This document shows, piece after piece, positions 6,123 to 43,256 of a stretch of DNA of 44,889 nt. The translations under genes and the position numbers were made by a program. The stretch lies in sequence record PQ850624.1; one strand, written 5' to 3'. The stretch comes from Escherichia phage RuthEpting_Bas85. Under the pieces are notes generated by a model. The model made no database searches, was not told the DNA's origin, and worked only from the letters and a program-made list of their open reading frames with translations. Each line of letters begins with the position of its first letter. Position 1 is the first letter of the stretch.

Positions 6123-6158
6123 TTTGTTTTCCTTCATATCTCTGTTGGTGTGCAACCA

Positions 6159-6187
6159 ATATAATGCAACCAATACCCGGATTGCAA
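6159..6187 (-). promoter_or_regulatory. sigma70-like promoter for minus-strand island, overlapped by two TGCAACCAAT motifs
   Basis: Minus-strand reading TTGCAA(6187-6182)-N17-TTATAT(6164-6159); plus strand carries TGCAACCAAT at 6151-6160 and 6165-6174 with a perfect TATAAT at 6160-6165. Confidence 0.4.
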
Positions 6188-6277
6188 GCGAATTTTGCGA
6201 TTATTTTTATCGCTGATAATATTAGAAGCGTGAAGTCGAGCGGGTGGCCCGCTCTGCCACAATCCCAGGGGGATAGC

Positions 6278-6982
6278 ATGAAACTTACTAAAGCAGAATA
6301 TGACGCGTTGCCGGAAAGCATGAAGGCGCTTTTTGTTGCCGACGGCGATGGGTATAAGTCAACATTTATGTCCGCTGACGAAGTACAGGCGGAAATCAAG
6401 GGTCTGAAAGACAACAACGCAAAGCTGGTGAGCGAGAAGAAAGCAGAAGCTGAACGCCGCGCCGAAGCCGAGCGCCTTGCGAAAGAGAAAGAGGACGCCG
6501 CCGCGCGCAAAAATGGCGACCTCGAAGCGATTGATAAGTCCTGGAAGGATAAGTTTGCAAAACACGAAGCAGACACATCGGGGAAAATCGAATCCTATCG
6601 CAAGCAGATCCACGACCTTACTATCGGCAGCGCTGCCAAAGACCTGGCCTCGAAGCTGTTCGGTAAGAATGCTGGCATCATGCAACGCCACGTAATGGAA
6701 CGCCTCGCGCTGGAAGACGGCGAAGACGGCAGCTTGAAAGTGCGCGTCTTGCAGGATGGCAAACCGTCCGCTCTGACTATGGACGAGCTTGAAAAAGAGT
6801 TCCGTAATAACGCCGATTTTGCATCCGTCCTAGCTGGCACGCCAGCCGGTGGCGCTCCGAGCAAACCGACACAGGTTATCGAAGATGCGAAGTCTAAAAT
6901 CACGATGGGCCATAGCTTCGGTATCACCGACCTGACGAAACAGGCAGGGGATATCATCGCTAAGATGGGCGACGACGAGTAA
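6278..6982 (+). CDS. head scaffolding protein (putative)
   Basis: Start at ATG 6278 (RBS AGGGGGA); 234 aa, charged, coiled-coil-like (AEAERRAEAERLAKEKEDAAARK); immediately upstream of major capsid gene. Confidence 0.6.
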   Translation: MKLTKAEYDALPESMKALFVADGDGYKSTFMSADEVQAEIKGLKDNNAKLVSEKKAEAERRAEAERLAKEKEDAAARKNGDLEAIDKSWKDKFAKHEADTSGKIESYRKQIHDLTIGSAAKDLASKLFGKNAGIMQRHVMERLALEDGEDGSLKVRVLQDGKPSALTMDELEKEFRNNADFASVLAGTPAGGAPSKPTQVIEDAKSKITMGHSFGITDLTKQAGDIIAKMGDDE

Positions 6983-7079
6983 GCAGATCGCCCGCGAAAG
7001 CGGGCGATTTTGCTAGCGCGTAAATCTAAGGTAACATTAACGTCACTGGGCGAATGCTCACAACTCAAAGGATTTCGAT

Positions 7080-8180
7080 ATGTCTTTAACAGTGTTCCAG
7101 CGTAAACTCGTTACCGCGGTTACGCAAATGATCCCCGACAACCTGAACGTGTTCAACGCTGCCGCTAATGGCGCTGTTGTTCTCGGTACAGGTGAAGTGC
7201 TGAAGGACGTTGTAGAAAAAATGTCCGTCGGCTTGATCGCCAACCTCGTTACTGACCGTAACGCATATGCGCCTGTAGGCACACCGGCAACCGCTAAAGT
7301 GCTGGCGCGTATGCTGACCAACTCGGTTAACCTCTCCGCGAAAGTGGGTCCGGTAGCAATCACTAAGGCTATGATGGCTAAGATCGAAACCAACGTTAAC
7401 AGCGTTGCGGCTGAGATTGCGGCACAGGCTACTCAAGCGATTATGCTGCATTACCTGAAGGCAGGTATTGGCGCAAGTAAAGCGGCGATCGAGAGCAACG
7501 CAGCGGCAGCATACACCCAACCGGCGCGCGTTGATGGCGTTGGCGGTCGTACCTTCCCTACCCTGGCAGACTTCCCGCTGGCGGCTTCTAAGTTCGGCGA
7601 TCAGGCGTCTTTGATTAAGTCCTGGTTTATGGACGGCGTTACCTGGGCTAACTTCATTGCGTACCAGGCGCTGCCTTCCGCTGAGCAGGTATTCGCGATC
7701 GGCGATCTGCAAGTAATGGGTGATGGCCTGGGCCGTCGTTTCATTATCTCCGATGCCGCTGCCGATGCTATGGGCGCGGGTAAGATGCTGGGTCTGGTCC
7801 CTGGCGCGGTTGCAGTTACCACTAACGGCCTCGATATGCTGGCGCAGGAAAAAGGCGGTAACGAGAACATCGAGCGCTGGTGGCAGGGTGAGTTCGACTT
7901 CAACGTGGCTGTTAAAGGCTACCGTCTGAAGGCGTCCGCTCGTACTCCGATCGAAGGCGTCCGCTCTTTTGCCCTGGGTGATATCACCACTAAGGACAAC
8001 TGGGAACTGGATCAGGGCCAAGTAGACAACGCTCCGGCAACCGTTCAGGATGTTGGCGCGGTGGGTGATGGCGATACTAAAGGCCGTCGCAAGACCCAAG
8101 CAGCACAGGCCGTGCCGACCCGTAACATCAAGGAAACGGCTGGCGTACTGGTTACGCTGACTGCTACCAGCGCGTCTTAA
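7080..8180 (+). CDS. major capsid protein
   Basis: 366 aa, RBS AAGGA, followed by strong terminator; position after scaffold; composition typical of capsid proteins. Antisense ORF 7086-8189 judged spurious. Confidence 0.8.
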   Translation: MSLTVFQRKLVTAVTQMIPDNLNVFNAAANGAVVLGTGEVLKDVVEKMSVGLIANLVTDRNAYAPVGTPATAKVLARMLTNSVNLSAKVGPVAITKAMMAKIETNVNSVAAEIAAQATQAIMLHYLKAGIGASKAAIESNAAAAYTQPARVDGVGGRTFPTLADFPLAASKFGDQASLIKSWFMDGVTWANFIAYQALPSAEQVFAIGDLQVMGDGLGRRFIISDAAADAMGAGKMLGLVPGAVAVTTNGLDMLAQEKGGNENIERWWQGEFDFNVAVKGYRLKASARTPIEGVRSFALGDITTKDNWELDQGQVDNAPATVQDVGAVGDGDTKGRRKTQAAQAVPTRNIKETAGVLVTLTATSAS

Positions 8181-8197
8181 TCGGCGCACATCCCAAA

Positions 8198-8223
8198 GGG
8201 GCGGGCTTATGCCCGCCTTTTTT
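8198..8223 (+). terminator. rho-independent terminator after capsid gene
   Basis: GGGGCGGGC-ttat-GCCCGCC followed by TTTTTT. Confidence 0.75.
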
Positions 8224-8238
8224 ATAGGAGCGAATAAA

Positions 8239-8739
8239 ATGTATGGCGACCCGCAAACCTTTACTGATTATGCCGCTGCGCGAGGCGTTGAAATTACGCT
8301 GGGCGATGCAACGCGACACCTTACCATCGTTAATGACTTCCTCAACGGCCTCAACTGGATCGGCGAACAAGCAGACCAGACCGGAATCGACGCATGGCCC
8401 CGCATTAATTACCCGTCAGACGGTAAGCCGGTGCGAGACACGCTCACTGAAGTTGTGGCGGTAGTGCCTGCCGGGCAAATCGTAGACTTCGCATCAATCC
8501 CCGTTGCCGTTGAGCAAGCCGTTTACCGGCTGGCGATGCTGGTGGCGGACGATATTGATATTTCGCCGATCGGCGGTGGCAAGGAGACTATCCGCGAAAC
8601 GGTTGGCCCGATTACGATGGAATATGACCCCGCTACAATTGGCGGATACGTGGCGTTCCCGTGGTGGGATGGCTTGCTGGGCTACTGGGTGAACGTAGAC
8701 GGCAACGCTTCAGGTAACTTTGACGTATACAGGGGCTAA
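8239..8739 (+). CDS. head-tail connector / adaptor-like protein (putative)
   Basis: Start at ATG 8239 (RBS AGGAG); 166 aa; placement between capsid and tail genes; function by position only. Confidence 0.45.
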   Translation: MYGDPQTFTDYAAARGVEITLGDATRHLTIVNDFLNGLNWIGEQADQTGIDAWPRINYPSDGKPVRDTLTEVVAVVPAGQIVDFASIPVAVEQAVYRLAMLVADDIDISPIGGGKETIRETVGPITMEYDPATIGGYVAFPWWDGLLGYWVNVDGNASGNFDVYRG

Positions 8740-8740
8740 T

Positions 8741-8854
8741 ATGAATCCGGCTGTTATTGCAGCGTTGCTGGCAGCGCTGGCGACGAAAGAGAAAGAGGAA
8801 GAACCAGTACCGCCGGAAGCACCGGCGCAGGAGGAAGACGATGGCGGGCTTTGA
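8741..8854 (+). CDS. small acidic ORF (37 aa), uncertain
   Basis: ATG with G-rich RBS; MNPAVIAALLAALATKEKEEEPVPPEAPAQEEDDGGL; overlaps the start of the next gene; may not be expressed. Confidence 0.25.
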   Translation: MNPAVIAALLAALATKEKEEEPVPPEAPAQEEDDGGL

Positions 8855-9194
8855 CTACGCGGGCTTAAAGCGGAAAGTAAATCCGCTGATTAAAAAATTC
8901 GGCATGACAGTTACCGTGACGCGTCCTGGATCTGTTGACCGCGTTAACGGCGACGAAGTGGTAATCCCGCCGACCTCGTTTGATATCATCGGACTGCGTG
9001 AGGAGTACAAGCCACGCGAGATCGACGGGACTCGGGTAATTGCCGGTGATGTTAAATTCTTATGCCGGGCGGTGGAGCAATTGCAGGTAGGCGATCTGGT
9101 TAACCTGAATAACACAGACTACCGGGTCGTTAATACTAACCCCCTGCAACCGGCGGGCACGACCATGCTGTTTCAATTACAGCTAAGGGGGTAA
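8841..9194 (+). CDS. head-tail joining / head closure protein (putative)
   Basis: Start at ATG 8841 (RBS AGGAGG 6 nt upstream); the ORF-track extension from 8757 gives an implausible poly-basic N-terminus. Confidence 0.45.
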   Translation: MAGFDYAGLKRKVNPLIKKFGMTVTVTRPGSVDRVNGDEVVIPPTSFDIIGLREEYKPREIDGTRVIAGDVKFLCRAVEQLQVGDLVNLNNTDYRVVNTNPLQPAGTTMLFQLQLRG

Positions 9195-9195
9195 C

Positions 9196-9789
9196 GTGGC
9201 TGAGGTCTACTCGTTCGCCGCTACCATTGCAACATGGGTAGATAAGACGAAGGAGAACAACGACAAGGCGGTGCGGGCGACCGGTATGCAAATACTCGGA
9301 CGCCTGATTGAGATCTCCCCGGTGGGCGACCCCCGCCGGTGGAAGATTAACAAGGCTTATGCGATGGCCCGCCAGCACGCGAACAAGGTGAACGCCGCAC
9401 AGCGCCGCAAGAATGGCGGCAAACTGAAGCGCGGGCAGAAGAAGCACGCCAGTGTGCTAGTATCGTTCAAGACTAAAAACGGCAACGTCACGTTCCGCCA
9501 GCGTGGCTGGGCCGCGAAGAATTACACCGGCGGGCGCTTCCGGGGAAACTGGCAGGTGTCTTTCGATCGTCCGGCTGTTGGCGCTGTTGACCGGGTGGAC
9601 AAGGCCGGAACGGCAACATTGGCGGCGGGGCGTGACGTGCTGGCGCATTACGATTCTGGCGAATACGGGTCGATCTGGTTTACTAACAATGTGCCATATG
9701 CGCAGCGGCTTGAGTATGGCTGGAGTAAACAAGCGCCCGCGGGGATTGTTCGCGTCGTAGCGGCAGAAATCAATTCGAAGGTGAAATAA
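9196..9789 (+). CDS. tail completion protein (HK97 gp10-like, putative)
   Basis: GTG start after RBS AGGGGG; 197 aa; C-terminal NNVPYAQRLEYG segment typical of gp10-family head-tail proteins. Confidence 0.55.
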   Translation: MAEVYSFAATIATWVDKTKENNDKAVRATGMQILGRLIEISPVGDPRRWKINKAYAMARQHANKVNAAQRRKNGGKLKRGQKKHASVLVSFKTKNGNVTFRQRGWAAKNYTGGRFRGNWQVSFDRPAVGAVDRVDKAGTATLAAGRDVLAHYDSGEYGSIWFTNNVPYAQRLEYGWSKQAPAGIVRVVAAEINSKVK

Positions 9790-10211
9790 TGAGCAATACT
9801 CTAATCCGCAAGGCGCTTAACAGCGTAGTTGAAGAATTATCGGTAAGCCTGAGCACTAACCAGCGCCCGATCAAGGTTAACTGGGAGAACGTGAAGGGCG
9901 ACCACGCTATCGGCAATGGCGTGTACCTGGAGCCGTACTTGCTTCCGGCACCGACCCAGTTTGTTGGCATTCAGCAGAAGGGCCGGATCTACGCAGGCGT
10001 GTATCAGGTTGCCGTAGTGTTCCCCGCGGGCACTGGCACACAGTATGCGAGCGAACTGGCGGACGCCATCGCGACGTCAGACAAATGGCAGGGCGTAAAG
10101 ATTACCGGCGCTACCTTCCAGCTTCAGGACGCGCCCTACACCAGTTCGGTGATTGAAGATATCGACCGCGCCCGCATCGTGGTATCGGTCCTGTATAACT
10201 GTTGCGCCTGA
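9789..10211 (+). CDS. tail terminator / tail completion protein (putative)
   Basis: 140 aa immediately upstream of major tail gene; assignment by position. Confidence 0.45.
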   Translation: MSNTLIRKALNSVVEELSVSLSTNQRPIKVNWENVKGDHAIGNGVYLEPYLLPAPTQFVGIQQKGRIYAGVYQVAVVFPAGTGTQYASELADAIATSDKWQGVKITGATFQLQDAPYTSSVIEDIDRARIVVSVLYNCCA

Positions 10212-10272
10212 TTTGGCGCAATTCTGCGCGTGCTGTATCATTAATCCGTATATCTAAACAGGAGCTTTCATT

Positions 10273-10998: not shown

Positions 10999-11028
10999 TT
11001 TGGTCGCTTAAATAGCGAGTGTTAATAT

Positions 11029-11051
11029 GGGGCCAGCACGGCCCCTTTTTT
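11029..11051 (+). terminator. rho-independent terminator after major tail gene
   Basis: GGGGCC-agcac-GGCCCC followed by TTTTTT. Confidence 0.75.
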
Positions 11052-11067
11052 ATTGGAGAATATTACA

Positions 11068-11430
11068 ATGGCTAAAGCACCACTCTTCACACTTGACCCT
11101 AAGCCGACCTTTAAGCTGCCGATTGAGATCCCGCGCCCTGGTGAGAACGAGCCGGGCAAGATGACCTTTACCGTCCGCCACCGCCCGATCGACGAGTTTT
11201 CGCAGACCATGCAGGACACCGAGCGCAAGCTGTCGGAATATGACGACAATGACCCGGACGGCTTTAACGTTATGGTTGAGGCCATCATGCACGTCGCTGA
11301 AGGCTGGAATCTGCCAGACCAATTTAACGCTGAGAACGTCCGCCGCCTGGTAGTCAACTACCCGCGCGCGTTCGGCGTGTTCCACACCTCGTACTATCTC
11401 GAATTGATGGGATTGCGTGAAAAAAACTAA
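11068..11430 (+). CDS. tail assembly chaperone (gpG-like)
   Basis: Start at ATG 11068 (RBS GGAGAA); 120 aa; ends in slippery run GAA-AAA-AAC-TAA. Confidence 0.8.
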   Translation: MAKAPLFTLDPKPTFKLPIEIPRPGENEPGKMTFTVRHRPIDEFSQTMQDTERKLSEYDDNDPDGFNVMVEAIMHVAEGWNLPDQFNAENVRRLVVNYPRAFGVFHTSYYLELMGLREKN

Positions 11431-11744
11431 TTGAGGCGGCGCGACGCTTTTATGGCCCGCCGCCACCCTCCGAAGATGTAGCCGCAAGTTTATGGGGCGC
11501 GGCCCCCGAAGATGTTTGTCCGTCTGTTGCGCTATGGCCCGACAACGCGAAGATAGTCGCAGTCTTCACAGATTGCTCTACGCAATGGCGCACCGGATTC
11601 GGTGGGGCATACGGCATCGACTACGGCGTGCTGGAATGGCTATTTAAGATGCACGGCATCGAAAACGAGCAACGTGCATTTAAAGATATCAAGCTAATGG
11701 AGCGAATCGCGCTTGATGAAATGGCGCAACAAAACCCCGCATAA
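11068..11744 (+). CDS. tail assembly chaperone GT fusion via programmed -1 frameshift
   Basis: The -1 frame is open from the slippery heptamer A-AAA-AAC (11421-11427) to TAA at 11742-11744 and encodes a gpT-like tail (GGAYGIDYGVLEWLFKMHGIENEQRAF). Confidence 0.6.
11421..11427 (+). other. -1 ribosomal frameshift slippery site (A AAA AAC)
   Basis: Heptamer of form X-XXY-YYZ at the end of the G-like ORF; downstream -1 frame open for ~105 codons. Confidence 0.55.
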
Positions 11745-11748
11745 TGAA

Positions 11749-12018
11749 GCGGGACGGATCGGGACGTCCCGCTTTGTCCCGTTTTGTCCCGCCACCTGCA
11801 AAACTGCATACCTACTCACTTTCATTGCATAAACTAAAAGCGGGACGAGCGGGACGTCCCGATCCGTCCCGCCCCCTAAATGTGCATACCTATTCAGATT
11901 TCGTGCATAAAATAAGCGGGACAGAAAGCGGGACAAACATGGGGCGGGACAAAGCGGGACAGCACCCCGTCCCCGTCAGTGCTGCCGCGGGTTTTAGCCG
12001 ATCGGGACAAGCGGGACA
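11749..12018. repeat. iteron array A (GCGGGACA / TGTCCCGC, both orientations)
   Basis: At least 5 exact GCGGGACA copies (11916, 11928, 11944, 11954, 12011) plus GGGAC-core variants; two identical 12-bp palindromes CGGGACGTCCCG (11760-11771, 11850-11861); two tandem ~80-bp units carrying TGCATA...GCATAAA. Confidence 0.8.
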
Positions 12019-12023
12019 AACCC

Positions 12024-12072
12024 CAGTCTTTCAGACTAGACGGGGGTCAATGGCCCCCCTCGTCTGAGACTG
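12024..12072 (+). other. long imperfect hairpin A (conserved copy at 39750-39799)
   Basis: CAGTCTTTCAGACTAGACGGGGG-tcaatg-GCCCCCCTCGTCTGAGACTG; arms identical in the second copy, loop differs. Confidence 0.6.
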
Positions 12073-12140
12073 AATAAGGTTTGTTTGAAATTCGCTGATA
12101 CAATGTCAATCGGCAACTGCATAAAAAAGGGGACTGCATA

Positions 12141-22218: not shown

Positions 22219-22235
22219 GTTATCATCTCCTATAT

Positions 22236-22269
22236 TTGGTTGAGTTTTAGTATTACACCGCTCAACCAA
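22236..22269. promoter_or_regulatory. operator-like inverted repeat upstream of the lipoprotein operon
   Basis: TTGGTTGAG-N16-CTCAACCAA (9-bp arms) enclosing TAGTATTAC; lies within the 5' extension of the minus-strand ORF track (ORF 21997-22281), upstream of the preferred ATG 22218. Confidence 0.4.
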
Positions 22270-22298
22270 GAATGCAACCAATTTATGAGGATTCAGCT

Positions 22299-25240: not shown

Positions 25241-25292
25241 GATGTTTTCCTTTTTAGTGGGGGCCGGATTGCCCCCGACGAGATAACTATAG

Positions 25293-25314
25293 TGCAACCA
25301 ACCTATTGGTTGCA
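25293..25314. promoter_or_regulatory. palindromic TGCAACCAA-N4-TTGGTTGCA site
   Basis: Perfect 9-bp inverted arms; overlaps the stop of the HAD gene and precedes the 24719-25240 gene. Confidence 0.45.
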
Positions 25315-25773
25315 AGTAAATTTTGCTACGTTTATAGAATAAATTTTAGGGACCAGATCGCTGCACGCCCGACGGATGGCGTCAATATTCTTAGCGCAGT
25401 CTTCAATGATGACCAGTTCGGACACGTTCGCATAGCATACAAGGTTGAATACGGCGCTCGCCTTAAACACCGGCGGCGGGGTGTCGTCCAACATTTCGCG
25501 CAAGAACAGCCGACCAGACGGGAATATTTTCAACTGTTCGGCGGTAGTCTCCCAGCACGCATAATGCCGGTTAGACAGATACGCGATCTCGAAGCCTTGC
25601 TCTTTGTACATGCGCAGCAACGGCAGCATGTCCATGTTAAGGTCTTCGCGTACGTGTGCTTTGTGCCACTTCGCCCAAAAGGTTGATTTGGTTTTTATGC
25701 CAGGCACCAGGTCAGCACGCGCATCACTTGAACCATTAATAACGCCATCCAGATCACAAATCAGTAGTTTCAT
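25303..25773 (-). CDS. HAD-family phosphatase-like protein
   Basis: N-terminal DLDGV (DxDx[TV]) motif, later LSNR and IIED motifs consistent with HAD hydrolase motifs I-IV. Confidence 0.55.
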   Translation of the reverse strand: MKLLICDLDGVINGSSDARADLVPGIKTKSTFWAKWHKAHVREDLNMDMLPLLRMYKEQGFEIAYLSNRHYACWETTAEQLKIFPSGRLFLREMLDDTPPPVFKASAVFNLVCYANVSELVIIEDCAKNIDAIRRACSDLVPKIYSINVAKFTCNQ

Positions 25774-27154: not shown

Positions 27155-27234
27155 CGTAATGTCTCCAGGTATTAAAAAGGGCGTCCAACCGGACACCCTT
27201 AAGATAATGCAACCAATCTAATTACGCAACCAAT

Positions 27235-30110: not shown

Positions 30111-30150
30111 TTCTAAAATCCTCGATAGGGCTAACCGGCACACTATACCG

Positions 30151-30429
30151 CTACGCGACCAATTCAGCAACCAATAAATCGCAGTCGGCTATGTTGTCAA
30201 TAACGCGAACGTCAGCACCGCGGCGGGCCATTCGCTCATGTTCTCGCACCTGGTGCGGCTTCGGTTTTCCTCCGGGGCGCTTCACTTCGACGAATACTAT
30301 GATGCCGTTGATGATAATAATCAGGTCGGGCGCACCTGCGCGCCCCTCCCATGCCAGCTTGCGGCAGAATCCGCCAACCTCTTTCACCCGTCGCATCAGG
30401 TGACTTTGAATCTTGCCTTCTGGTGTCAT
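30151..30429 (-). CDS. VRR-NUC domain nuclease
   Basis: 92 aa; PD-(D/E)xK signature GAPDLIII...VFVEVKRPGGKP...Q typical of VRR-NUC domains. Confidence 0.8.
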   Translation of the reverse strand: MTPEGKIQSHLMRRVKEVGGFCRKLAWEGRAGAPDLIIIINGIIVFVEVKRPGGKPKPHQVREHERMARRGADVRVIDNIADCDLLVAELVA

Positions 30430-33930: not shown

Positions 33931-34019
33931 TTTTCATTTCCTCATTTCGCATGTATCGGGGTTATTGTGAGCCACCCCGTTCGGCTTGGTTGCTAATTTA
34001 CTTGGTTGCGCCTAAGCGG

Positions 34020-34262
34020 TCAAGCACTTTTATTAAAAAGATTTCGGGTCACGTAGTCGGAGGCGTTCTCGATCCAGCTTAACGGCGGGCGGTCTTTATG
34101 CTTTAACACCCAGCCTACGGCAACGTCACTGTAGCCATCGTCCAGCCAGCGGGATGGATGGCGAATCATCCAGGCCACCATTAACACGCCCTGCACGCAA
34201 TGCAGGATAAAGCCCAGCGCACCGAGCATAATCATCAATACGAATGCAAACACCTTATTCAT
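34020..34262 (-). CDS. small membrane protein (putative)
   Basis: 80 aa; two hydrophobic segments (VFAFVLMIMLGALGFIL, GVLMVAWMI). Confidence 0.35.
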   Translation of the reverse strand: MNKVFAFVLMIMLGALGFILHCVQGVLMVAWMIRHPSRWLDDGYSDVAVGWVLKHKDRPPLSWIENASDYVTRNLFNKSA

Positions 34263-35843: not shown

Positions 35844-36094
35844 TATTTCGTCTCCCAACGGTCAATTACTTTTTCCTCCGACGATACTGCAAAGCGAACA
35901 TATTCTAGATTGGAGTCCGCCCAAATATAAAAGTCGGGATTAGTAAAGGTGGTGCGCTTAATTTGCGCGGGGTTATCGCGGCGTTTATCTATCACGGCAA
36001 CGCGTGATTTAAAGTTGCCGATACGTTCGAATAGCCAATAATAAGGGCGCTGGTCGCGTGAATCCACCGCCTCGATTAGCGTGAAACGTGCCAT
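35843..36094 (-). CDS. hypothetical protein
   Basis: 83-aa ORF with ATG start, second gene of the leftward early operon. Confidence 0.4.
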   Translation of the reverse strand: MARFTLIEAVDSRDQRPYYWLFERIGNFKSRVAVIDKRRDNPAQIKRTTFTNPDFYIWADSNLEYVRFAVSSEEKVIDRWETK

Positions 36095-36142
36095 TGTCTC
36101 GTCCTCTAAAAATAGGCCCGCAGATTAGCGGGCCGGATAATA

Positions 36143-36661
36143 TTAATCTTCTAATTCGAAATACGTTTCTACTATTTCTTTTAAATCTTTATGGAAGTCT
36201 TCGACGTCGTCATCTTCCAGCTTGGCGACGGATTTAATTTCGAACGCTTCCAGCAGATCATCAAATTCGTCGTTTGCGTCGTCGTCATCGCCGCCTGCGA
36301 TAATCGCGGCATACTGCTTGATTTCGTCGCGCATCTCTTTCAGAGGATCGGCTTCTTTCTTGCCTTTACCTTTCGCCGGTGCTTTTTTAGACTTCGCAGG
36401 TGCTTCTTCCTCGTCCGCGTCGTCGTCATCTTCTACGGCTTCTTTCTTAGCCTTGCCCTTTGCAGGCGCTTTTTTGGACTTCGCCGGTGCTTCATCTTCA
36501 GCGTCGTCATCTTCGACTACTTCTTCTTTTGCCTTGCTCTTAGCCGGGGCTTTCTTCGCTTCCTGTTTACCAACGGCAGCGCCAGCAGTTTCGTAATGCT
36601 TAGCGATGGTTTCCAGTGCTACTACGCCGCGAGTGATCAGGTTTACGATTTGCTCAAACAT
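36143..36661 (-). CDS. highly charged repeat protein (first gene of leftward early operon)
   Basis: 172 aa; ATG 36661 with RBS GGAGA; two ~29-aa tandem repeats (EDDDAEDEAPAKSKKAPAKGKAKKEAV) and an acidic C-terminal half. Confidence 0.5.
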   Translation of the reverse strand: MFEQIVNLITRGVVALETIAKHYETAGAAVGKQEAKKAPAKSKAKEEVVEDDDAEDEAPAKSKKAPAKGKAKKEAVEDDDDADEEEAPAKSKKAPAKGKGKKEADPLKEMRDEIKQYAAIIAGGDDDDANDEFDDLLEAFEIKSVAKLEDDDVEDFHKDLKEIVETYFELED

Positions 36662-36721
36662 GGTATATCTCCGATTGGTTAATTTAAGTATTCGGTGCGG
36701 TATGCCCCGTCAACGAGGTGG

Positions 36722-36751
36722 ATAATAGATTGGTTGCAGGCGGGGTGTCAA
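36722..36751 (-). promoter_or_regulatory. leftward early promoter (sigma70-like) with embedded ATTGGTTGCA motif
   Basis: Minus-strand reading TTGACA(36751-36746)-N18-TATTAT(36727-36722); motif at 36729-36738 lies in the spacer; -35 is part of a 13-bp inverted repeat shared with the rightward promoter. Confidence 0.5.
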
Positions 36752-36870
36752 CAACTAATTTCAAAAAAAAAGCGCCGAGGCAAAATGCGACGGCGCTAAC
36801 CAATAAGAGACAATGAGACGTGATTATTATTATTACACGCGTGCGCGCCCGTTTCAATATACAAAAGGAG

Positions 36871-36899
36871 TTGACACCCCGCATTTTTAGGTGTAGTTT
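36871..36899 (+). promoter_or_regulatory. rightward promoter (sigma70-like)
   Basis: TTGACA(36871-36876)-N17-TAGTTT(36894-36899); followed by palindromic TTGGTCATTAACCAAT (36902-36917) and RBS AGGAGA before ATG 36931. Confidence 0.45.
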
Positions 36900-36930
36900 C
36901 GTTGGTCATTAACCAATAGGAGACAGAACA

Positions 36931-37260
36931 ATGCATATCCACGACGCTATCGAAATGTTAACTACGGCTGTTAGTGGCGAGACAAGCCGGTCCTGGGCTT
37001 ATACCGATGCCGTTGGCGCGGCGTTATTTGAGATCGAACGCCTGCGCAGTGCCGAAAAAGAATTGCGCGCCAAGCTGGAATTACTCAACGGTACGGCAGC
37101 AAGCAAGTTGCAAAAGCACAATGAAGAAATGGAAGAATACAAAAAGCAGGTTATCCGTTTGCGCGACGAGGGCAAGTCCTGGGCGATGATTGCCGAGTTG
37201 ACCGGAATTAATCAAAGCACCGTGCGCTCCTGGGTACGCAATAATAAAACTTCTAAGTAA
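36931..37260 (+). CDS. HTH-containing regulatory protein (putative)
   Basis: 109 aa; C-terminal HTH-like segment KSWAMIAELTGINQSTVRSWVRN; first gene of the rightward operon. Confidence 0.55.
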   Translation: MHIHDAIEMLTTAVSGETSRSWAYTDAVGAALFEIERLRSAEKELRAKLELLNGTAASKLQKHNEEMEEYKKQVIRLRDEGKSWAMIAELTGINQSTVRSWVRNNKTSK

Positions 37261-37270
37261 GGCATCGGCA

Positions 37271-39535: not shown

Positions 39536-39626
39536 ATTTTGCGCGCATTGGTTGCCAAATTGAGTGTTTTTAGCTGGTCGCATTGGTTGCCGTGTAGTGT
39601 AAATATAGTGAATAGTTATGCAGTTT

Positions 39627-39745
39627 TATTGCATAAAATAAGCGGGACAAAAAGCGGGACAGACAGGGGGCGGGACAAAGCGGGACAGCACCCCTTGTCC
39701 CGCCCGGATGGCGCGGCTTTCAGAGGAGCGGGACAGGCGGGACAA
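39627..39745. repeat. iteron array B (second copy)
   Basis: TTGCATAAAAT followed by six exact GCGGGACA copies (39642, 39654, 39670, 39680, 39728, 39737) and one inverted TGTCCCGC; ~85% identical to 11895-12018. Confidence 0.8.
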
Positions 39746-39749
39746 ACCC

Positions 39750-39799
39750 CAGTCTTTCAGACTAGACGGGGGTCAGTCGGCCCCCCTCGTCTGAGACTG
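39750..39799 (+). other. long imperfect hairpin B
   Basis: CAGTCTTTCAGACTAGACGGGGG-tcagtcg-GCCCCCCTCGTCTGAGACTG; arms identical to hairpin A, loop one nt longer. Confidence 0.6.
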
Positions 39800-40017
39800 C
39801 ATAAAATCCGGGATTGCATAATGTACGGCAGCATGACGTGAATTGCGGTCGTCGACGAACTAGGCAACCAATGCGAGTTGTATTATGGGTGGTGAAAAAT
39901 GCAGTTTGCAGTTACAGCAGATAGCGATCAACTTTTTCATACGCATGATTAATATTGGTTGCATTCAGCCTGGCACCCTGCTAGATTGGTTGCACCCCAA
40001 CGAGAGGACCAAACAAA

Positions 40018-40188
40018 ATGAAATTTCCAGTAACCATCAAAGACGGTAAATCAACTATCACCTTCACAAGCAACGACCAGGGCACCTATGAAAGCGGGGC
40101 GACTTGCATGTCTACCCTGGACGATGTGATGATTCGTGTTAATTCCGGTAAAGCCTCGATTGTTGACGACAACACTAAGAAGGACTGA
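40018..40188 (+). CDS. small hypothetical protein (56 aa)
   Basis: ATG with RBS AGAGG; MKFPVTIKDGKSTITFTSNDQ...; below ORF-track size cut-off; first ORF after element B. Confidence 0.4.
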   Translation: MKFPVTIKDGKSTITFTSNDQGTYESGATCMSTLDDVMIRVNSGKASIVDDNTKKD

Positions 40189-40191
40189 ACA

Positions 40192-40497
40192 ATGAGAGCA
40201 TTAATCTGGAAATACTCACGGGCCATAGCGAAGCTGGACGAAGCGAAAAACACAAACGGCAACGTAGACTATGCGCGCCAGTTTGCGGCACGGGCACACC
40301 AACACATCATGAGTGCGCTCGACGATATGGACGCCAGCATGGATGACCTGGGTCCGCTGCGTAAGGCTATCCATGAATACGCGCTGGCATTCTCCCGTGA
40401 GCGCCTGGCCTATCGCTTCGGTATCGGGGATAAGGCAGTGTCAAACGTCGCCCGGATTAAAGCACAGCGCGAACTATTCGCCCAGCTTGCGAAATAA
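40192..40497 (+). CDS. hypothetical protein
   Basis: 101-aa ORF, helical, ATG 3 nt after preceding stop. Confidence 0.45.
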   Translation: MRALIWKYSRAIAKLDEAKNTNGNVDYARQFAARAHQHIMSALDDMDASMDDLGPLRKAIHEYALAFSRERLAYRFGIGDKAVSNVARIKAQRELFAQLAK

Positions 40498-40506
40498 GGG
40501 GCCAAA

Positions 40507-40776
40507 ATGGGCCGTAGCCGAGCTAAACAGCTTTCTTGGCATATTCCCCTGCATTGCATACGAATATGGGCTAAGAACGCGATTGAGGGCGATTACGTGT
40601 ACTGGTGCTATCGCGATGACGTGAAGCCACTTACGCAGACCCGCTACTTGCACCAGTTCGCAGCACAACACGATTTCAGGGTGCGGACTTCCTTGCAACC
40701 AATGGGGATACGTATTACATTACGCCGGAAGCCCGCCGTTGAGCGGGTAGGCAAACACTGGAGACTGAGCAAATGA
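40507..40776 (+). CDS. hypothetical protein
   Basis: 89-aa ORF; contains one in-coding TGCAACCAAT copy (40694-40703). Confidence 0.4.
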   Translation: MGRSRAKQLSWHIPLHCIRIWAKNAIEGDYVYWCYRDDVKPLTQTRYLHQFAAQHDFRVRTSLQPMGIRITLRRKPAVERVGKHWRLSK

Positions 40777-40907
40777 TGATAGGCGGATTCTCGCAGGAGT
40801 TTATCTACCTGCATATGTGCGTACTTGACTACGAACAACACGGCATCGCTACGGTATGCGATGGCGACTATAAGACTGTTGACGAGATTGAGGAGACTGA
40901 GCAATGA
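40773..40907 (+). CDS. small hypothetical ORF (44 aa), uncertain
   Basis: ATGA overlaps at both ends (translational coupling pattern). Confidence 0.25.
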   Translation: MMIGGFSQEFIYLHMCVLDYEQHGIATVCDGDYKTVDEIEETEQ

Positions 40908-41431
40908 AATTACTATTCCGCCGTAAGCGCGATGGATACATCATGAAGCCGATCCAGACCATGGCTAAATACGTGCGATTGCGCCACGTTCACAGCGGCA
41001 TTGAGTGTATGACGACTAAGGCAAATCTGCCGGAGGGGTACGACGTACTCACACATGATATTGAGCGCGGCGATGTGCTGCGTGATATTCGCCACGGCAC
41101 TTGCTGGGTCGTCGAGTATGTCGGTCGGCACGGCTTGCGTATGCAATCCCGCGCGGATGGCGTAGTCGGGATGACTTACTTCGGGCTAATCCACTATGAG
41201 CGCGTGGGGCGCAAGTACAGCCTCCTCAAGTCGCAGCCGCATGAGCGCGCTACTTACGACGCGACCCAGGTGCAATCTAAAATACGCCGTGCTGCGCACG
41301 AAATCGTCAATCGCTTCGATGCCGTGGCGAATGCACAGCGCCATGCGCAGGAATTCGGTGTGGGATTTATCCGTGTCGAACCAGACGGCAGCATGAAGGC
41401 CATCGACCCGCGCTCGGTGATTCTGAAATGA
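40904..41431 (+). CDS. hypothetical protein
   Basis: 175 aa, RBS GAGGAG; no motif recognised. Confidence 0.45.
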   Translation: MKLLFRRKRDGYIMKPIQTMAKYVRLRHVHSGIECMTTKANLPEGYDVLTHDIERGDVLRDIRHGTCWVVEYVGRHGLRMQSRADGVVGMTYFGLIHYERVGRKYSLLKSQPHERATYDATQVQSKIRRAAHEIVNRFDAVANAQRHAQEFGVGFIRVEPDGSMKAIDPRSVILK

Positions 41432-41552
41432 GCGCGACTATCCGTGATATGCTCATGCATAACCGCTTTGAGATAGGCGGGCGAGTGTTCTGCAATTACT
41501 TCGTGGCGCGTGCTTGGGCGCGCCATATTGGACAACCAGAGGGGGCAATACA

Positions 41553-41654
41553 ATGCTATACATCCTCGCGATAATGTGCGGCGGCAGTCTTGCGGCCCTG
41601 GTCTTGTTGGCTGGGATTATCGGCCTGATTAAATACTTATGGTGCAAATTATGA
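41553..41654 (+). CDS. hydrophobic micro-protein (33 aa), uncertain
   Basis: RBS GAGGGGG; MLYILAIMCGGSLAALVLLAGIIGLIKYLWCKL is a single predicted TM helix; stop overlaps next start (ATGA). Confidence 0.3.
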   Translation: MLYILAIMCGGSLAALVLLAGIIGLIKYLWCKL

Positions 41655-41938
41655 TACACGATCTGATATTTTGGTTTGGTTTGGGGTGTGCGTCGCTCTT
41701 TGCTATGGTGCTGGCGCTGCTGATTTGGATATTCCTGGTATGGCCCGCGGTGGAAGCAGCCAGCATTACCCGCATGACGTTCAAGATATACAAGCGCCGC
41801 GGCATATCTGAACACCCGACCAGGTTGCGCATGTGGTGGCTTTGGTATCTGGATATGATTGGCGGTCGAAGGTTTGAGGCCATCCGGTCATCCGGGTGGG
41901 AATGGAAAGGCGTCGGCAAGTGGTCCATTTTCGATTAA
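41651..41938 (+). CDS. membrane protein (putative lysis-associated)
   Basis: Start at ATG 41651; ~95 aa with one TM segment and a Trp/Arg-rich C-terminus; followed by terminator, then holin genes. Confidence 0.4.
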   Translation: MIHDLIFWFGLGCASLFAMVLALLIWIFLVWPAVEAASITRMTFKIYKRRGISEHPTRLRMWWLWYLDMIGGRRFEAIRSSGWEWKGVGKWSIFD

Positions 41939-41955
41939 ATATGCAGTCGTGATAT

Positions 41956-41990
41956 AGTCCCAGTGAGCTAAAACTTACTGGGACTTTTTT
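41956..41990 (+). terminator. rho-independent terminator
   Basis: AGTCCCAGT-gagctaaaactt-ACTGGGACT (perfect 9-bp stem) followed by TTTTTT; ends 1 nt before ATG 41991. Confidence 0.7.
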
Positions 41991-42281
41991 ATGGATAAGC
42001 TAAACGAGTGGTTATTCGCCCTCGCGTGTCTTGCAGGTGGCTTCGTTGGCGCTCGCATTCACGGTGAGGCAACGAAAGGGCCGCTAAATTTTGTATTGTT
42101 TATCGTGGTCGGCTTCTTGTGCGCCGTGTTTGGGGCACCAGCTATTGCCGAGTGGTTTAATCTAACCGGACCGAGAACTGTCGCCGGTCTTGGCTTCGTA
42201 ACGGCAATCTTCTGGATGCCGGTCGCCGCCAGAATCCGTGAAGCAATCTCCTCGTTCCGTCTGCCGGGGAATGCAAAATGA
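41991..42281 (+). CDS. holin (putative, three hydrophobic segments)
   Basis: 96 aa; hydrophobic stretches (WLFALACLAGGFVGA, NFVLFIVVGFLCAVFGAPAI, VAGLGFVTAIFWMPVAA), charged C-terminus; upstream of endolysin. Confidence 0.55.
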   Translation: MDKLNEWLFALACLAGGFVGARIHGEATKGPLNFVLFIVVGFLCAVFGAPAIAEWFNLTGPRTVAGLGFVTAIFWMPVAARIREAISSFRLPGNAK

Positions 42282-42517
42282 TTATCGCCATCCTGTTATT
42301 AGTGATCGGGGCTTCGTCGCTGTATAACGTATACGCGCCATCCGTCCAGGATGGCATTTGCGGACGGGTGCTCTACCTGCTTACAGCAATGACCTGTATT
42401 ATTGGCCTGATGCAAACGGGGAACGTATCGAATACAGTCTGGTCCGTGCTAATCTGGCTATTCGCATTACGCACACTGCGTAATGCTGTTTTAAATGGGG
42501 TAAAACATGCGATTTAG
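42278..42517 (+). CDS. second holin-like membrane protein
   Basis: 79 aa, two or three hydrophobic segments; overlaps holin stop and endolysin start. Confidence 0.45.
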   Translation: MIIAILLLVIGASSLYNVYAPSVQDGICGRVLYLLTAMTCIIGLMQTGNVSNTVWSVLIWLFALRTLRNAVLNGVKHAI

Positions 42518-42998
42518 TGACAACGGTCTAAGATTTACGGCAGCGTGGGAGTCGTTCAGCCCAGTGCCGTATTTCGCGACTAAGAAGGAGCAGGCCCGCG
42601 GCTTGTACACCTGGGGCTACGGTCATACTGGCACTAATCCGCCACAGAGCATTACCCGCGCGGAAGCGCTGGAGCTACTCAAGCGTGATGTGGCGTATGC
42701 CGAGAACTGGGTGAACAAGTACGCACACCCGAGCATCAATCAGGCGCAATTCGACGCGCTGGTGGATCTGGTAATCAATGCCGGTCAAGGTCCGATCGTA
42801 CCGGATAACATTGCCAATGACTTCGATGACGCGGTGCGCCTGGGTGATTGGGCCAAAGTCCGTGCTACGCTGCCGCAGTTCCGCAAGCAAGGCGGTGAAG
42901 TGCTCAAGGGCCTGGTACGTCGTGCAATCGGCAGACAGGCGCTATTCGATGGTAAGCAGTGGGACGTTGCCGAGAAAATCGGTCGTAACGCGGCATAA
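42507..42998 (+). CDS. endolysin (lysozyme-type, putative)
   Basis: 163 aa; N-terminal GLRFTAAWESFSPVPY...GLYTWGYGHTG resembles catalytic Glu-containing region of phage lysozymes; downstream of holins. Confidence 0.8.
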   Translation: MRFSDNGLRFTAAWESFSPVPYFATKKEQARGLYTWGYGHTGTNPPQSITRAEALELLKRDVAYAENWVNKYAHPSINQAQFDALVDLVINAGQGPIVPDNIANDFDDAVRLGDWAKVRATLPQFRKQGGEVLKGLVRRAIGRQALFDGKQWDVAEKIGRNAA

Positions 42999-43014
42999 TA
43001 AGAGGAAACACAGT

Positions 43015-43182
43015 ATGTTAAAAAGTATTCTTGATCATAACGCGGACGCGCTTGCCGCACTGGCTAAAACGGAAGACCCAGGCGCGCGCGCCATTATCGC
43101 GGACACTATCAGTCATGCGGGTGTCTTTGACGCGAAGCTGCCAAGCCCGCCACCGCCGGAAGAACCAGGCCCAGCGGCATAA
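43015..43182 (+). CDS. small hypothetical protein (55 aa)
   Basis: RBS AAGAGGA; Pro-rich C-terminus (PSPPPPEEPGPAA); followed by terminator. Confidence 0.35.
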   Translation: MLKSILDHNADALAALAKTEDPGARAIIADTISHAGVFDAKLPSPPPPEEPGPAA

Positions 43183-43187
43183 ACACG

Positions 43188-43212
43188 AAGCCCGGTTAAT
43201 TCCGGGCTTTTT
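43188..43212 (+). terminator. rho-independent terminator
   Basis: GCCCGG-ttaatt-CCGGGC followed by TTTTT. Confidence 0.7.
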
Positions 43213-43217
43213 ATTGC

Positions 43218-43256
43218 TTGACTTGCAACCAACATAGGGGCCATACTGCAACCAAT
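43218..43256 (+). promoter_or_regulatory. sigma70-like promoter overlapped by two TGCAACCAA(C/T) motifs
   Basis: TTGACT(43218-43223)-N18-CATACT(43242-43247); motifs at 43224-43233 and 43247-43256. Confidence 0.45.

Follow-up and report, generated by a model that had tools for sequence, protein, structure and literature searches.

A short asymmetric DNA word, hereafter called the box, recurs in the genome of Escherichia phage RuthEpting_Bas85. Its occurrences are genuine and not random: they keep to control regions, stand out as conserved footprints and overlap promoter-like hexamers in several independent genomes. We consider, with moderate confidence and on computational grounds, that the boxes are operators, i.e., asymmetric sites bound by a DNA-binding protein that the phage itself encodes, the helix-turn-helix (HTH) protein g54 being the most likely one.

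Sequence, number and conservation of the boxes

The stretch analyzed (the window; 44,889 nucleotides, PQ850624.1) is a complete Dhillonvirus genome with 98.8% identity to phage Haito_Bas83. In a PWM built from 20 sites, information was confined to (T)GCAACCAA(T) and was absent from the flanks, with an asymmetric core of 9-10 bp. The 9-mer GCAACCAAT was found in 15 exact copies, compared with about 0.5 expected, at all of the positions and on the strands listed in an earlier note on this DNA; the close variants at 25293, 33985, 34001 and 43224 were likewise present, and the direct pairs described there are real. The enrichment that the note had claimed was upheld by 100 dinucleotide shuffles, which gave a mean of 0.49 copies and a maximum of 3, and by expectations of 0.40 under a Markov-3 model and 0.86 under an order-4 model, the latter partly absorbing the motif itself. 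The 8-bp core is present in 20 copies, with approximately 1.7 expected by chance.

On a curated map, 18 of these 20 core copies, as counted after removal of ORFs judged spurious, are intergenic or lie at most 25 nt from a gene end (binomial P 1.6e-14). The two exceptions are at 40695 (in g60) and 16817 (in g25), the latter likely being a chance copy. Several copies fall inside the small ORFs g53, g56, g57 and g69 of the Bas83 annotation, but we do not regard these as genes because frameshifts or stops interrupt them in most relatives and two of them have no PHROG family. The description of the motif as "genome-wide" was too broad: the 7-21 kb structural block and the terS-upstream promoter both lack it, save for a single copy in the block that probably arose by chance. 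Spacings within box pairs range from 9 to 35 bp, orientation is mixed, and the register relative to the -35 and -10 hexamers is variable. The "perfect palindrome" reported at 25293-25314 does have two perfect 9-nt inverted arms, but the arms are separated by 4 nt. This is the only inverted pair among about ten clusters, the remainder being direct pairs or single boxes, and palindromic operators of the Cro/CI type, which are two-fold symmetric and of fixed length, do not fit such a set.

Box cores are 97.7% identical among dhillonviruses, vs 85.8% for their flanks (at most 19 distinct sequences per site); the boxes thus qualify as phylogenetic footprints, and they are limited to control regions. 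No other 9-mer is as strongly enriched as this word in phage HK578 or in the distant syntenic metagenomic phages L035, L037 and L039, and phages reported from Escherichia, Shigella, Sodalis and Salmonella all have it unchanged. All three synonymous positions of the intragenic g60 box are invariant among 18 distinct sequences. The dispersed network and the g54 protein family were found in this lineage only, and a search of the literature returned no prior description of the network.

Promoters and the origin-like region

Within sigma70-like promoters, boxes occupy the spacer, the -35, the -10 or the start region, in either orientation (Table 1). In the window, 9 of 13 intergenic promoter candidates of at least 9 bits carry boxes, and in distant phages 4 of 5, 5 of 8 and 5 of 8 candidates of at least 10 bits do so, vs about 2.5% by chance, although the overlap is partly circular at several sites because the box itself supplies a weak -35 (TTGCNN). 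Overlap with promoter candidates was seen in five genomes, and the three overlaps pointed out previously (6158-6187, 36722-36751 and 43218-43247) were all recovered, the first of them as a minus-strand match. The pairs at 27.2, 30.15 and 22.27 kb are best read on the opposite strand, serving leftward genes, and the same probably applies to the pair at 6.15 kb. In the leftward operon, the boxes at 36.7 and 34.0 kb point in the direction of transcription and those at 30.15 and 27.2 kb against it; box orientation in the rightward operon is likewise mixed. In L035, L037 and L039, the spacer of the main leftward promoter is taken up by two boxes in tandem (TTGAC-GCAACCAAC-GCAACCAAT-c-TAATAT), and a further box separates the rightward -10 from the start of the g54 homologue; where the window has the variant that precedes the g54 RBS, the distant relatives show an exact GCAACCAAT. 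These data support a network that covers nearly all early and middle promoters as well as the origin-like region, and not every promoter of the genome: the one upstream of terS is conserved in HK578, L035, L037 and L039 and has no box in any of them.

The gene-free, AT-rich region that directly follows the helicase-primase gene is bracketed by five boxes, in agreement with the earlier statement that five copies flank the GCGGGACA repeat (iteron) region; g56, an ORF annotated within it, is spurious. The origin-proximal boxes have G at position 1 in their extended form, which is GGCAACCAATGCG in the window, and the arrangement of boxes around the region is retained in distant relatives. This region is a likely replication origin. 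A second cluster of GCGGGACA iterons (11785-12018) has no boxes.

Table 1. Box sites, promoter candidates and associated features of the window
Feature	Position	Strand	Details
Direct pair of exact boxes	6151-6174	+	6151-6160 and 6165-6174; 14-bp spacing; divergent g08/scaffold-gene control region; overlaps minus-strand candidate TTGCAA-N18-TATATT (6158-6187) and plus-strand TATAAT (6160-6165)
Box cluster	22235-22282	both	Divergent g29/tail-fibre control region; exact box 22273-22282 (+); 7/10 variants CTCAACCAAG 22261-22270 (+) and TTTGGTTGAG 22235-22244 (-); minus strand, by eye, ATTGG-TTGCAT-N17-AATACT towards g29-g28
Inverted pair TGCAACCAA-cCTa-TTGGTTGCA	25293-25314		9-nt perfect arms; in minus-strand candidate TTGCAA-N18-TATAGT (25286-25315), upstream of g32
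Direct pair	27208-27234	+	27208-27217 exact, 27225-27234 CGCAACCAAT; 17-bp spacing; minus strand ATTGG-TTGCGT-N17-TATCTT (27201-27229), then conserved hairpin, RBS, g37
Direct pair CGCGACCAAT and AGCAACCAAT	30154-30175	+	3' edge of g43; within minus-strand candidate TTGCTG-N17-TATAGT (30142-30170), upstream of Lar-like gene
Direct pair CGCAACCAAG and AGCAACCAAG	33985-34010	-	Upstream of SSB/annealing-protein gene; flanks -10 of TTGACC-N17-TAAATT (33995-34023, minus strand)
Main leftward promoter TTGACA-N18-TATTAT	36722-36751	-	Best sigma70 match of the genome; exact box 36729-36738 in spacer, adjoining -10; predicted to drive 36143-36661 (-) and the replication/recombination operon
Rightward promoter TTGACA-N17-TAGTTT	36871-36899	+	g54 promoter candidate
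Invariant TTGGT-N5-ACCAAT/ATTAACCAAT box variant	36902-36917	+	Directly before g54 RBS
g54, candidate box-binding protein	36931-37260	+	109 aa; coiled-coil and helix-turn-helix
Gene-free origin-like region	39536-39884		AT-rich tract, 7 GCGGGACA repeats, long inverted repeat; boxes 39547-39556 (-), 39582-39591 (-) and 39863-39872 (+) in inverted orientation, all of extended form GGCAACCAATGCG
Direct pair of exact boxes	39954-39994	-	31-bp spacing; on plus strand boxes supply -35 TTGCAT (39959-39964) and overlap -10 TAGATT (39982-39987); candidate serves g58 and downstream genes; read directly from sequence
Sole clearly intragenic box (g60)	40694-40703	+	Overlaps -35 of candidate TTGCAA-N17-TACATT (40693-40721)
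Promoter TTGACT-N18-CATACT	43218-43256	+	Box 43224-43233 adjoins -35; second box 43247-43256 starts at last base of -10
Strong box-free promoter candidate TTGGTG-N17-TATAAT	44791-44819	+	Upstream of terS

The candidate binder g54

The N-terminal 45 residues of the g54 protein are hypervariable; a long helix spans 21-79, and the C-terminal HTH (helices 84-91 and 95-108) is invariant, the C-terminal 60 residues as a whole being almost so. It matches HTH_23 and Sigma70_r4_2 above the Pfam cut-offs, and HTH_28 also scores, whereas its similarity to ECF sigma region 4.2 is below the NCBIfam cut-offs; searches of Pfam, NCBIfam and PHROGs returned HTH matches only and no AAA+ or Rep domain. In the AF2 model (pLDDT 86), the long helix is followed by a tri-helical HTH that superimposes on the DNA-binding domains of resolvase, IstA, LuxR and sigma region 4. 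Whole-protein Foldseek matches were not significant (E > 0.7), and with no catalytic domain present, the database labels "transposase", "resolvase" and "nuclease inhibitor gamma" are unsupported.

Among the early proteins common to distant box-bearing phages, g54 is the sole non-enzyme, the shared part being its HTH half; the other small proteins were screened for DNA-binding ability by profile searches. The box strictly co-occurs with the invariant g54 HTH, which is itself invariant wherever the box is, and in every genome the g54 gene directly precedes that for helicase-primase. HK578 gp45 is only 48% identical to g54, yet SW..IAE.TGIN.ST.R.W is kept and the HK578 box is the same. Co-occurrence, HTH conservation and gene position together suggest g54 as the best candidate for the box-binding protein. 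No relatives of g54, including any prophage homologue, were found in 185,579 bacterial species genomes, and the Bas83 and HK578 annotations contain no integrase, the "transposase" label there sitting on g54 itself.

Proposed operator function and alternative explanations

On computational evidence we infer that a protein binds the boxes, that g54 is this protein and that its effect is mainly repressive. As the first gene of the rightward early operon, g54 would be transcribed from a near-consensus sigma70 promoter, and the accumulating protein would bind single boxes via its C-terminal HTH. Pairing or oligomerization by the long helix is predicted to permit joint binding of box pairs with flexible spacing and orientation. 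Because the boxes cover the spacer, -35 or -10/start site of early and middle promoters, their occupancy should exclude or trap host RNA polymerase, and may thereby shut down or throttle the early and middle operons. The protein would also autoregulate through the box-like site downstream of its own promoter, and the box-free promoter upstream of terS would stay unaffected. At the five origin-region boxes, the same protein may also mark or organize the origin beside the helicase-primase gene. Equal repression everywhere sits poorly with continued expression of the middle and lysis genes downstream of the 39.96 and 43.2 kb promoters, and some box sites may activate rather than repress.

The earlier note had offered two readings. 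An operator network for a phage-encoded regulator fits the conserved control-region footprints, both orientations, the variable register and the frequent pairing, as well as the retention of the word in distant relatives that share, as their only non-enzyme early protein, the HTH half of g54, a protein already singled out in that note. A phage-specific promoter element is less well supported, in that the box has no set position and near-consensus -35 and -10 hexamers are already present in many box promoters. As a positive specificity element, the box would let a phage factor recruit or re-target host RNA polymerase and activate phage promoters, especially those with a poor TTGCNN -35, and the factor could be g54 as a free-standing sigma region 4-like domain (cf. 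sigma appropriation by T4 MotA/AsiA, and Mu Mor/C). Five candidates (27.2, 30.15, 39.96 and 22.27 kb, and 12.94 kb in L035) do obtain their -35-like hexamer from a reversed box, and the Sigma70_r4_2 match mentioned above, with ECF sigma region 4.2 below its cut-offs, is compatible with such a role. Regulators of dual action are also common, lambda CI and phi29 p4 repressing some promoters and activating others. General activation nevertheless seems fairly unlikely to us, given that the box may adjoin either hexamer, lie beyond the -10 or occupy the whole spacer, that it occurs in both orientations and that a spacer-bound protein normally blocks polymerase; the strongest box promoters, moreover, need no activator because they have TTGACA or TTGACG and a good -10.

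The bracketing of the origin-like region, its retention in distant relatives, the common extended form and the position of g54 upstream of helicase-primase could also mean that the boxes are primarily replication elements, at which an initiator (g54) assembles and loads the adjacent helicase-primase, the promoter copies being an autoregulatory by-product of the DnaA-box or Rep/iteron type. We hold this to be unlikely: about 15 of the 20 boxes are distant from the origin-like region and overlap promoters, the iteron cluster at 11785-12018 is without boxes, and the origin call in this genus is itself a prediction. Sites for a conserved host nucleoid protein or transcription factor, coupling phage promoters to host physiology, would explain the invariance of the box in phages of four host genera, particularly as g54 is a candidate binder only, and the ACCAAT part seems to resemble GntR/PdhR-type half-sites. 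No E. coli regulator is known to us to have this asymmetric consensus, however, the polarity of the inverted pair is opposite to that of the PdhR box, and the strict co-occurrence with the g54 HTH argues for a phage protein, so that a host factor appears improbable. Many copies lie near transcript starts and are followed by conserved leader hairpins, as might be expected of an RNA-level signal in mRNA leaders (processing, stability or translation). Yet with orientation to the flanking genes mixed within each operon, many would appear in transcripts as their complement or be absent from them, and Rfam 15 gave 0 matches at the gathering threshold in the whole window; with 0 of 100 shuffles exceeding 3 copies, this explanation and a compositional or chance origin are together most improbable.

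A bolder form of the preferred operator reading, which we put forward as speculation, is that g54 might be a minimal free-standing sigma region 4-like/resolvase-type HTH on a coiled-coil stalk, serving a virulent phage as its one master switch. From within their spacers it would turn off every early and middle promoter used by the host polymerase, and it would organize the origin for the neighbouring helicase-primase; its N-terminal 45 residues would evolve fast because host defence or a co-evolving partner targets them or is decoyed by them. If true, g54 would be a phage analogue of the dual role of DnaA.

The box network is a new case of an already known type, to be compared with P1 C1 operators, L5 stoperators and DnaA boxes. 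It has both the above-chance copy number and the conserved intergenic or promoter placement of dispersed asymmetric operators (L5 gp71/P1 C1 type). Mycobacteriophage L5 gp71 reportedly binds operators or "stoperators", a 13-bp asymmetric site with 20-30 genome copies. The two systems share a short asymmetric site in many copies, short intergenic regions or promoters and one small HTH protein (a candidate here), but the boxes are 9-10 bp and of mixed orientation, whereas L5 sites have a single orientation relative to transcription. The L5 binder is, in addition, the immunity repressor of a temperate phage, whereas this lineage is virulent, with no prophage g54 homologue among the 185,579 bacterial species genomes searched and no integrase annotated in Bas83 or HK578; the boxes are thus not stoperators of the L5 type specifically. 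P1 C1, the large monomeric repressor of a temperate phage, has operators with a 17-bp consensus; these are likewise dispersed and asymmetric, overlap the promoters of several operons and include some pairs or inverted pairs, but their sequence is unrelated, as is C1 to g54 in sequence and fold. DnaA boxes and plasmid Rep/iteron systems resemble the network in having an asymmetric 9-mer in both orientations beside an AT-rich region at the origin (a putative one here) and also in promoters, a (candidate) binder gene adjoining the replication machinery, and one protein that also regulates transcription, as g54 would. The box is unrelated to TTATNCACA, however, most copies are at promoters rather than the origin, and g54, as helix and HTH only, lacks the AAA+ or Rep domain of such initiators. 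T4 MotA also acts through a 9-bp phage-specific word on a whole temporal class of sigma70-dependent promoters, but MotA boxes are fixed at about -30 and replace the -35, whereas the boxes here range from abutting the -35 to downstream of the -10 and accompany TTGACA, TTGACG and TTGACT, so that they are not of the MotA type. The g54 HTH, to which no catalytic domain is attached, superimposes on the C-terminal HTH of serine recombinases and IS transposases and on sigma-70 region 4 with 0.4-1.5 Å rmsd over 33-46 residues; one such domain by itself recognizes an asymmetric site of about 9-12 bp.

The box and its place on a corrected gene map

All 15 exact copies of the 9-mer GCAACCAAT listed in the earlier note were recovered when both strands of the window were counted, and a shuffle control bore out their excess: in 100 dinucleotide-preserving shuffles the word occurred 0.49 times on average and never more than three times. 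Its expectation was 0.40 copies under a Markov-3 model and 0.86 under one of order 4, into which the motif itself is partly absorbed. Among the strongly over-represented 9-mers of the window, GCAACCAAT is the most abundant, and the sole word family comparable in enrichment is the GCGGGACA repeat. The 8-bp core GCAACCAA occurs 20 times, against a chance expectation of about 1.7 copies. In a weight matrix built from 20 sites, the positions of (T)GCAACCAA(T) are informative and the flanks are not; the element, called the box here, is therefore short and asymmetric. The window's most frequent 8-mers are ACGGCAGC and its kin (33 copies), spread over every frame and both strands of coding DNA; these words were rejected as a motif, being compositional and not ranking by observed/expected under the order-4 model.

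For the placement analysis, the gene map of Escherichia phage Haito_Bas83 (PQ850604.1; gene names gNN) was carried over to window coordinates (see the table). The window covers essentially the whole genome of a virulent siphophage in the genus Dhillonvirus. Its identity is 98.8% with Bas83 (over 36-44 kb) and 80-90% with about 140 further E. coli, Shigella and Sodalis phages. The deposited Bas83 annotation puts several boxes within small hypothetical ORFs. We found that g53, g56, g57, g69 and the plus-strand g52 are interrupted by stops or frameshifting indels in the majority of relatives (g56, in the origin-like region, is intact in 0 of 24), with no internal stops in the controls g54 and g60 or in the minus-strand ORF competing with g52. 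Since g53, g56, g57 and g69 are disrupted in most relatives and overlie promoters, boxes or origin-like repeats, these four are probably artefacts of annotation. A phrog_3127 match (E 8e-50) supports the minus-strand ORF, which has the strongest promoter upstream of it and is stop-free in 22 relatives; g52, intact in only one of the 22, gave no match in the PHROG screen. The annotation of HK578, the type dhillonvirus, also chooses the minus strand here and leaves the region after the helicase-primase gene empty. Judged by this comparison, the minus-strand ORF is taken as the true gene. The box map in this way corrects the annotation at five spurious ORFs and one wrong-strand gene. On the curated map, where intergenic DNA makes up 5.9% of the genome, 18 of the 20 core copies are intergenic or no more than 25 nt from a gene end (binomial P 1.6e-14); the two exceptions lie within g60 and g25.

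Coordinates of the box-related features in the window
Feature	Coordinates	Strand	Remark
Intragenic cores	40695; 16817		in g60; in g25
Bas83_0053 (g53)	36688-36816
Bas83_0056 (g56)	39539-39841
Bas83_0057 (g57)	39885-40049
Bas83_0069 (g69)	43115-43237
Minus-strand ORF	36143-36661	-	competes with g52
Bas83_0052 (g52)	36191-36682	+	annotated in GenBank
Top-ranked promoter candidate	36722-36751	-	TTGACA-N18-TATTAT
Sigma70-like promoter	36829-36857	-	TTGAAA-N17-AATAAT with TG
GC hairpin and T9 run	36797 down to 36763	-
AACCAAT box variant	36796-36804
Reversed-box class (predicted)	27.2, 30.15, 39.96, 25.3, 22.27 kb		6.15 kb probably
Box-free promoter candidate	44791-44819	+	upstream of terS
Box-free promoter candidate	10213-10241	+	upstream of major tail gene
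Leader hairpins	25245-25285; 27160-27195; 6235-6260		g32; g37; scaffold gene
g54 promoter	36871-36899
Invariant box-like site	36902-36917		TTGGT-N5-ACCAAT, just downstream of g54 promoter
g54	36931-37260		109 aa; residues 1-45 at 36931-37065
Origin-like region	39536-39884
Origin-proximal box subclass	39544-39591; 39863-39876		L035: 12522-12590
Two further boxes	39954-39994
Second GCGGGACA cluster	11785-12018		region 11744-12077

Each box was compared at single-base resolution with its counterparts in dhillonvirus sequences from IMG/VR, metagenomes and GenBank, as many as 19 distinct ones per site. Mean identity was 97.7% in the box cores as against 85.8% in the surrounding 20+20 nt; most boxes are exact in every sequence, and substitutions and indels fall in the flanks. 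At the intragenic copy in g60, all three synonymous positions (a small number) are invariant in 18 distinct sequences, compared with only 31% of the other third positions of that gene. HK578 has 13 exact copies, in the same places as in the window. Three distant metagenomic phages with the same gene order (L035, L037 and L039), whose replication proteins share only 66-85% identity with those of the window and which do not have most of its small genes, again show GCAACCAAT as the 9-mer of highest enrichment, at 8-12 copies in 20 kb.

A reverse co-occurrence scan searched IMG/VR for paired boxes. The matches listed were mostly tandem arrays (periods 9, 27 or 54) in unrelated viruses, probably coding repeats, and no second lineage with a dispersed network was among them. 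One contig, L070 (IMGVR_UViG_3300038463_000167), has 12 GCAACCAA cores on both strands of one 450-bp region (2750-3180), set in longer, partly common repeat units such as GGATGCAACCAATTAGGCGGGG; this region holds no convincing gene, and no L070 protein resembles any window protein. L070 was rejected as a second network, since the phage is unrelated and its copies form a local iteron array; the common core word is apparently a coincidence.

Boxes, promoters and rival readings

Both strands of the window were scanned with a sigma70 -35/-10 weight matrix, and the genome's top-ranked candidate holds a box inside its spacer. Boxes occur in 9 of the 13 intergenic candidates scoring at least 9 bits and, among candidates of at least 10 bits in the distant phages, in 4/5 (L035), 5/8 (L037) and 5/8 (L039), the chance overlap being about 2.5%. 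Co-directional boxes follow a consensus-like -35 (TTGACN), or abut or follow the -10, for example at 36.7, 34.0 and 43.2 kb. In reversed boxes (ATTGGTTGCN), TTGCNN provides a -35-like hexamer, and the spacer contains a second box; promoters of this class are predicted by an argument that is partly circular. The main leftward promoter of the distant phages reads TTGAC-GCAACCAAC-GCAACCAAT-c-TAATAT, with two tandem boxes occupying the spacer, and further promoters read TTGACA-N8-GCAACCAAT-TATCTT and TTGACG-TGCAACCAAy-N7-AATACT.

The strong promoter just upstream of terS (TTGGyG-N17-TATAmT) is box-free in all five genomes compared (the window, HK578, L035, L037 and L039); this promoter and the box-free candidate before the major tail gene are likely late-operon promoters outside the network. 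The presence or absence of boxes at promoters thus indicates that the network spans early/middle genes and not the packaging/structural operon promoter. Its genes would include those for replication, recombination, host takeover and lysis-proximal functions, as well as leftward 'moron' genes embedded in the structural block.

Boxes at promoters may be read as operators for a protein or as a phage-specific promoter element, the two alternatives left by the earlier note. Box pairs are spaced 9-35 bp apart, and box orientation relative to the flanking genes is mixed inside each operon; such variability is unlike a fixed core promoter element, which is the less well supported reading, and like protein sites overlapping the polymerase footprint. 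The boxes are very probably protein-binding operators. An RNA motif was rejected by the same mixed orientation and by the lack of an Rfam match, a Chi-like or packaging signal by the confinement of copies to promoters rather than their scattering over coding DNA, and a methyltransferase or restriction site by the word being asymmetric and intergenic only.

In behaviour the network most resembles two phage systems, the scattered asymmetric operators bound by P1 C1 and the operators and stoperators bound by gp71 of mycobacteriophage L5; the L5 sites differ in having a single orientation and belonging to temperate immunity, neither of which characterizes the box network. DnaA boxes and plasmid Rep iterons are the closest analogues for the origin-plus-promoter duality; however, the boxes lack the DnaA sequence and g54, the candidate reader, lacks an AAA+ domain. 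T4 MotA boxes differ in their fixed position and absent -35, and Cro/CI operators in their two-fold symmetry. As each of these systems departs from the network in at least one defining feature, the network is a member of none.

Searchable literature, including that under older phage names, contained no description of the box motif or of dhillonvirus transcription or start sites, and the genome papers examined say nothing of promoters, motifs or regulators. The network is real, conserved and previously undescribed; it is of a familiar kind, and there is a clear candidate for its regulator. Dhillonviruses rank among the most common virulent siphophages of E. coli, are included in the BASEL reference collection and serve phage-therapy and defence-system studies, and their gene regulation is undescribed. 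The box supplies an early/middle promoter map (about 20 sites in about ten control regions), points to a candidate master regulator and a candidate replication origin, and opens both regulation and origin in this widely used genus to direct tests by simple assays. Boxes also offer orthogonal promoter/operator parts for phage engineering.

Several structures accompany the promoters. Just upstream of the main leftward promoter lies another sigma70-like promoter, followed after about 60 nt by a GC hairpin and T9 run, which a box variant abuts; L035, L037 and L039 have a similar hairpin and T-run at the equivalent place. This unit (36763-36857) may produce a short leftward transcript or act as an insulator. 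Conserved GC-rich hairpins also lie between box promoters and ribosome-binding sites of three genes; that at 27.17 kb is followed by TTTTT and resembles an intrinsic terminator/attenuator directly downstream of the promoter.

The candidate reader g54

The rightward operon begins with the g54 gene, which immediately precedes the helicase-primase gene. Its product exceeds the Pfam cut-offs for HTH_23, HTH_28 and Sigma70_r4_2; its NCBIfam matches (sigma region 4.2, transposase HTHs) are all below cut-off. Boxes and the g54 HTH occur together: setting aside recognisable enzymes, the distant phages that carry boxes conserve just one early protein, g54, through its C-terminal half (83% identity), and they have kept no other small hypothetical protein. 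No further DNA-binding domain came up when 30 small proteins were screened against PHROG and Pfam. Elsewhere in IMG/VR and metagenomes, the family was found in dhillonvirus-like contigs only, a metagenome search with g54 returning just dhillonviruses and generic HTH noise, and no relatives were found across 185,579 bacterial species genomes.

The C-terminal 60 residues are almost invariant in the family (...GKSWAMIAELTGINxSTVRSWVRN), and residues 1-45 are hypervariable in length and sequence, which suggests diversifying selection or partner co-evolution at the N-terminus. HK578 gp45 is only 48% identical to g54 over the C-terminal 67 residues, with SW..IAE.TGIN.ST.R.W retained, yet the box is unchanged in that phage. 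A covariation search found no homologues with an altered recognition helix, IMG/VR giving only one new locus. A frozen HTH and box beside a hypervariable N-terminus would fit a regulator locked by the number of its own sites.

An AlphaFold2 model of g54 (pLDDT 86) comprises a short helix, a long helix (21-79) and a tri-helical HTH (84-91, 95-108). Foldseek returned no whole-protein match, and the HTH superimposes at 0.4-1.5 A on the DNA-binding domains of serine recombinases, IstA, LuxR/GerE and sigma region 4, domains that each recognize an asymmetric site of about 9-12 bp as a single unit. A match to PDB 8vd6 'CAP REPEAT' was set aside as uninformative, this entry being apparently designed, from its name and idealised five-fold repeat sequence. 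No curated family membership emerged; fold and sequence comparison gave only HTH-level matches, which leave the labels 'transposase', 'resolvase' and 'nuclease inhibitor gamma' unsupported.

The invariant box-like site 3' of the g54 promoter has the classic layout of negative autoregulation, and the distant phages carry an exact box at this place, between the rightward-promoter -10 and the g54-homologue start codon. We moderately favour g54 as the protein that reads the boxes. Its strong promoter would drive early synthesis, and its long helix would allow oligomers to bind single and paired boxes; g54 positioned on the spacer, -35 or -10/start would then throttle or shut off early/middle promoters and its own promoter, leaving the box-free terS promoter unaffected. 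The chances that repression is the main effect of the boxes appear about even.

The origin-like region and the GCGGGACA repeats

The gene-free origin-like region contains an AT-rich tract, seven GCGGGACA repeats and a long inverted repeat. The five copies noted earlier as flanking this iteron element comprise three extended boxes bracketing the region, namely two CGCATTGGTTGCC on the left and an inverted GGCAACCAATGCG on the right, and two further boxes nearby. In the distant phages, five boxes likewise bracket a 450-500 bp gene-free gap after the helicase-primase gene. This arrangement suggests that g54 may have a second role, architectural or initiator-like, beside the helicase-primase at a putative origin. 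In the origin-proximal subclass of boxes, G replaces T as the first base and the 3' side is extended by conserved sequence, giving GGCAACCAATGCG in dhillonviruses and GGCAACCAATTGCA in L035; these boxes may be composite or differential-affinity sites.

A second cluster of six GCGGGACA repeats lies between the tail chaperone and tape-measure genes. It contains no GCAACCAAT box, and the box and GCGGGACA repeat systems are therefore separate. The surrounding region may be a second iteron array or origin. The small ORFs annotated there, g20 and g21, have no clean translation in window coordinates, and HK578 has no annotation in its corresponding gap (about 11141-11504).
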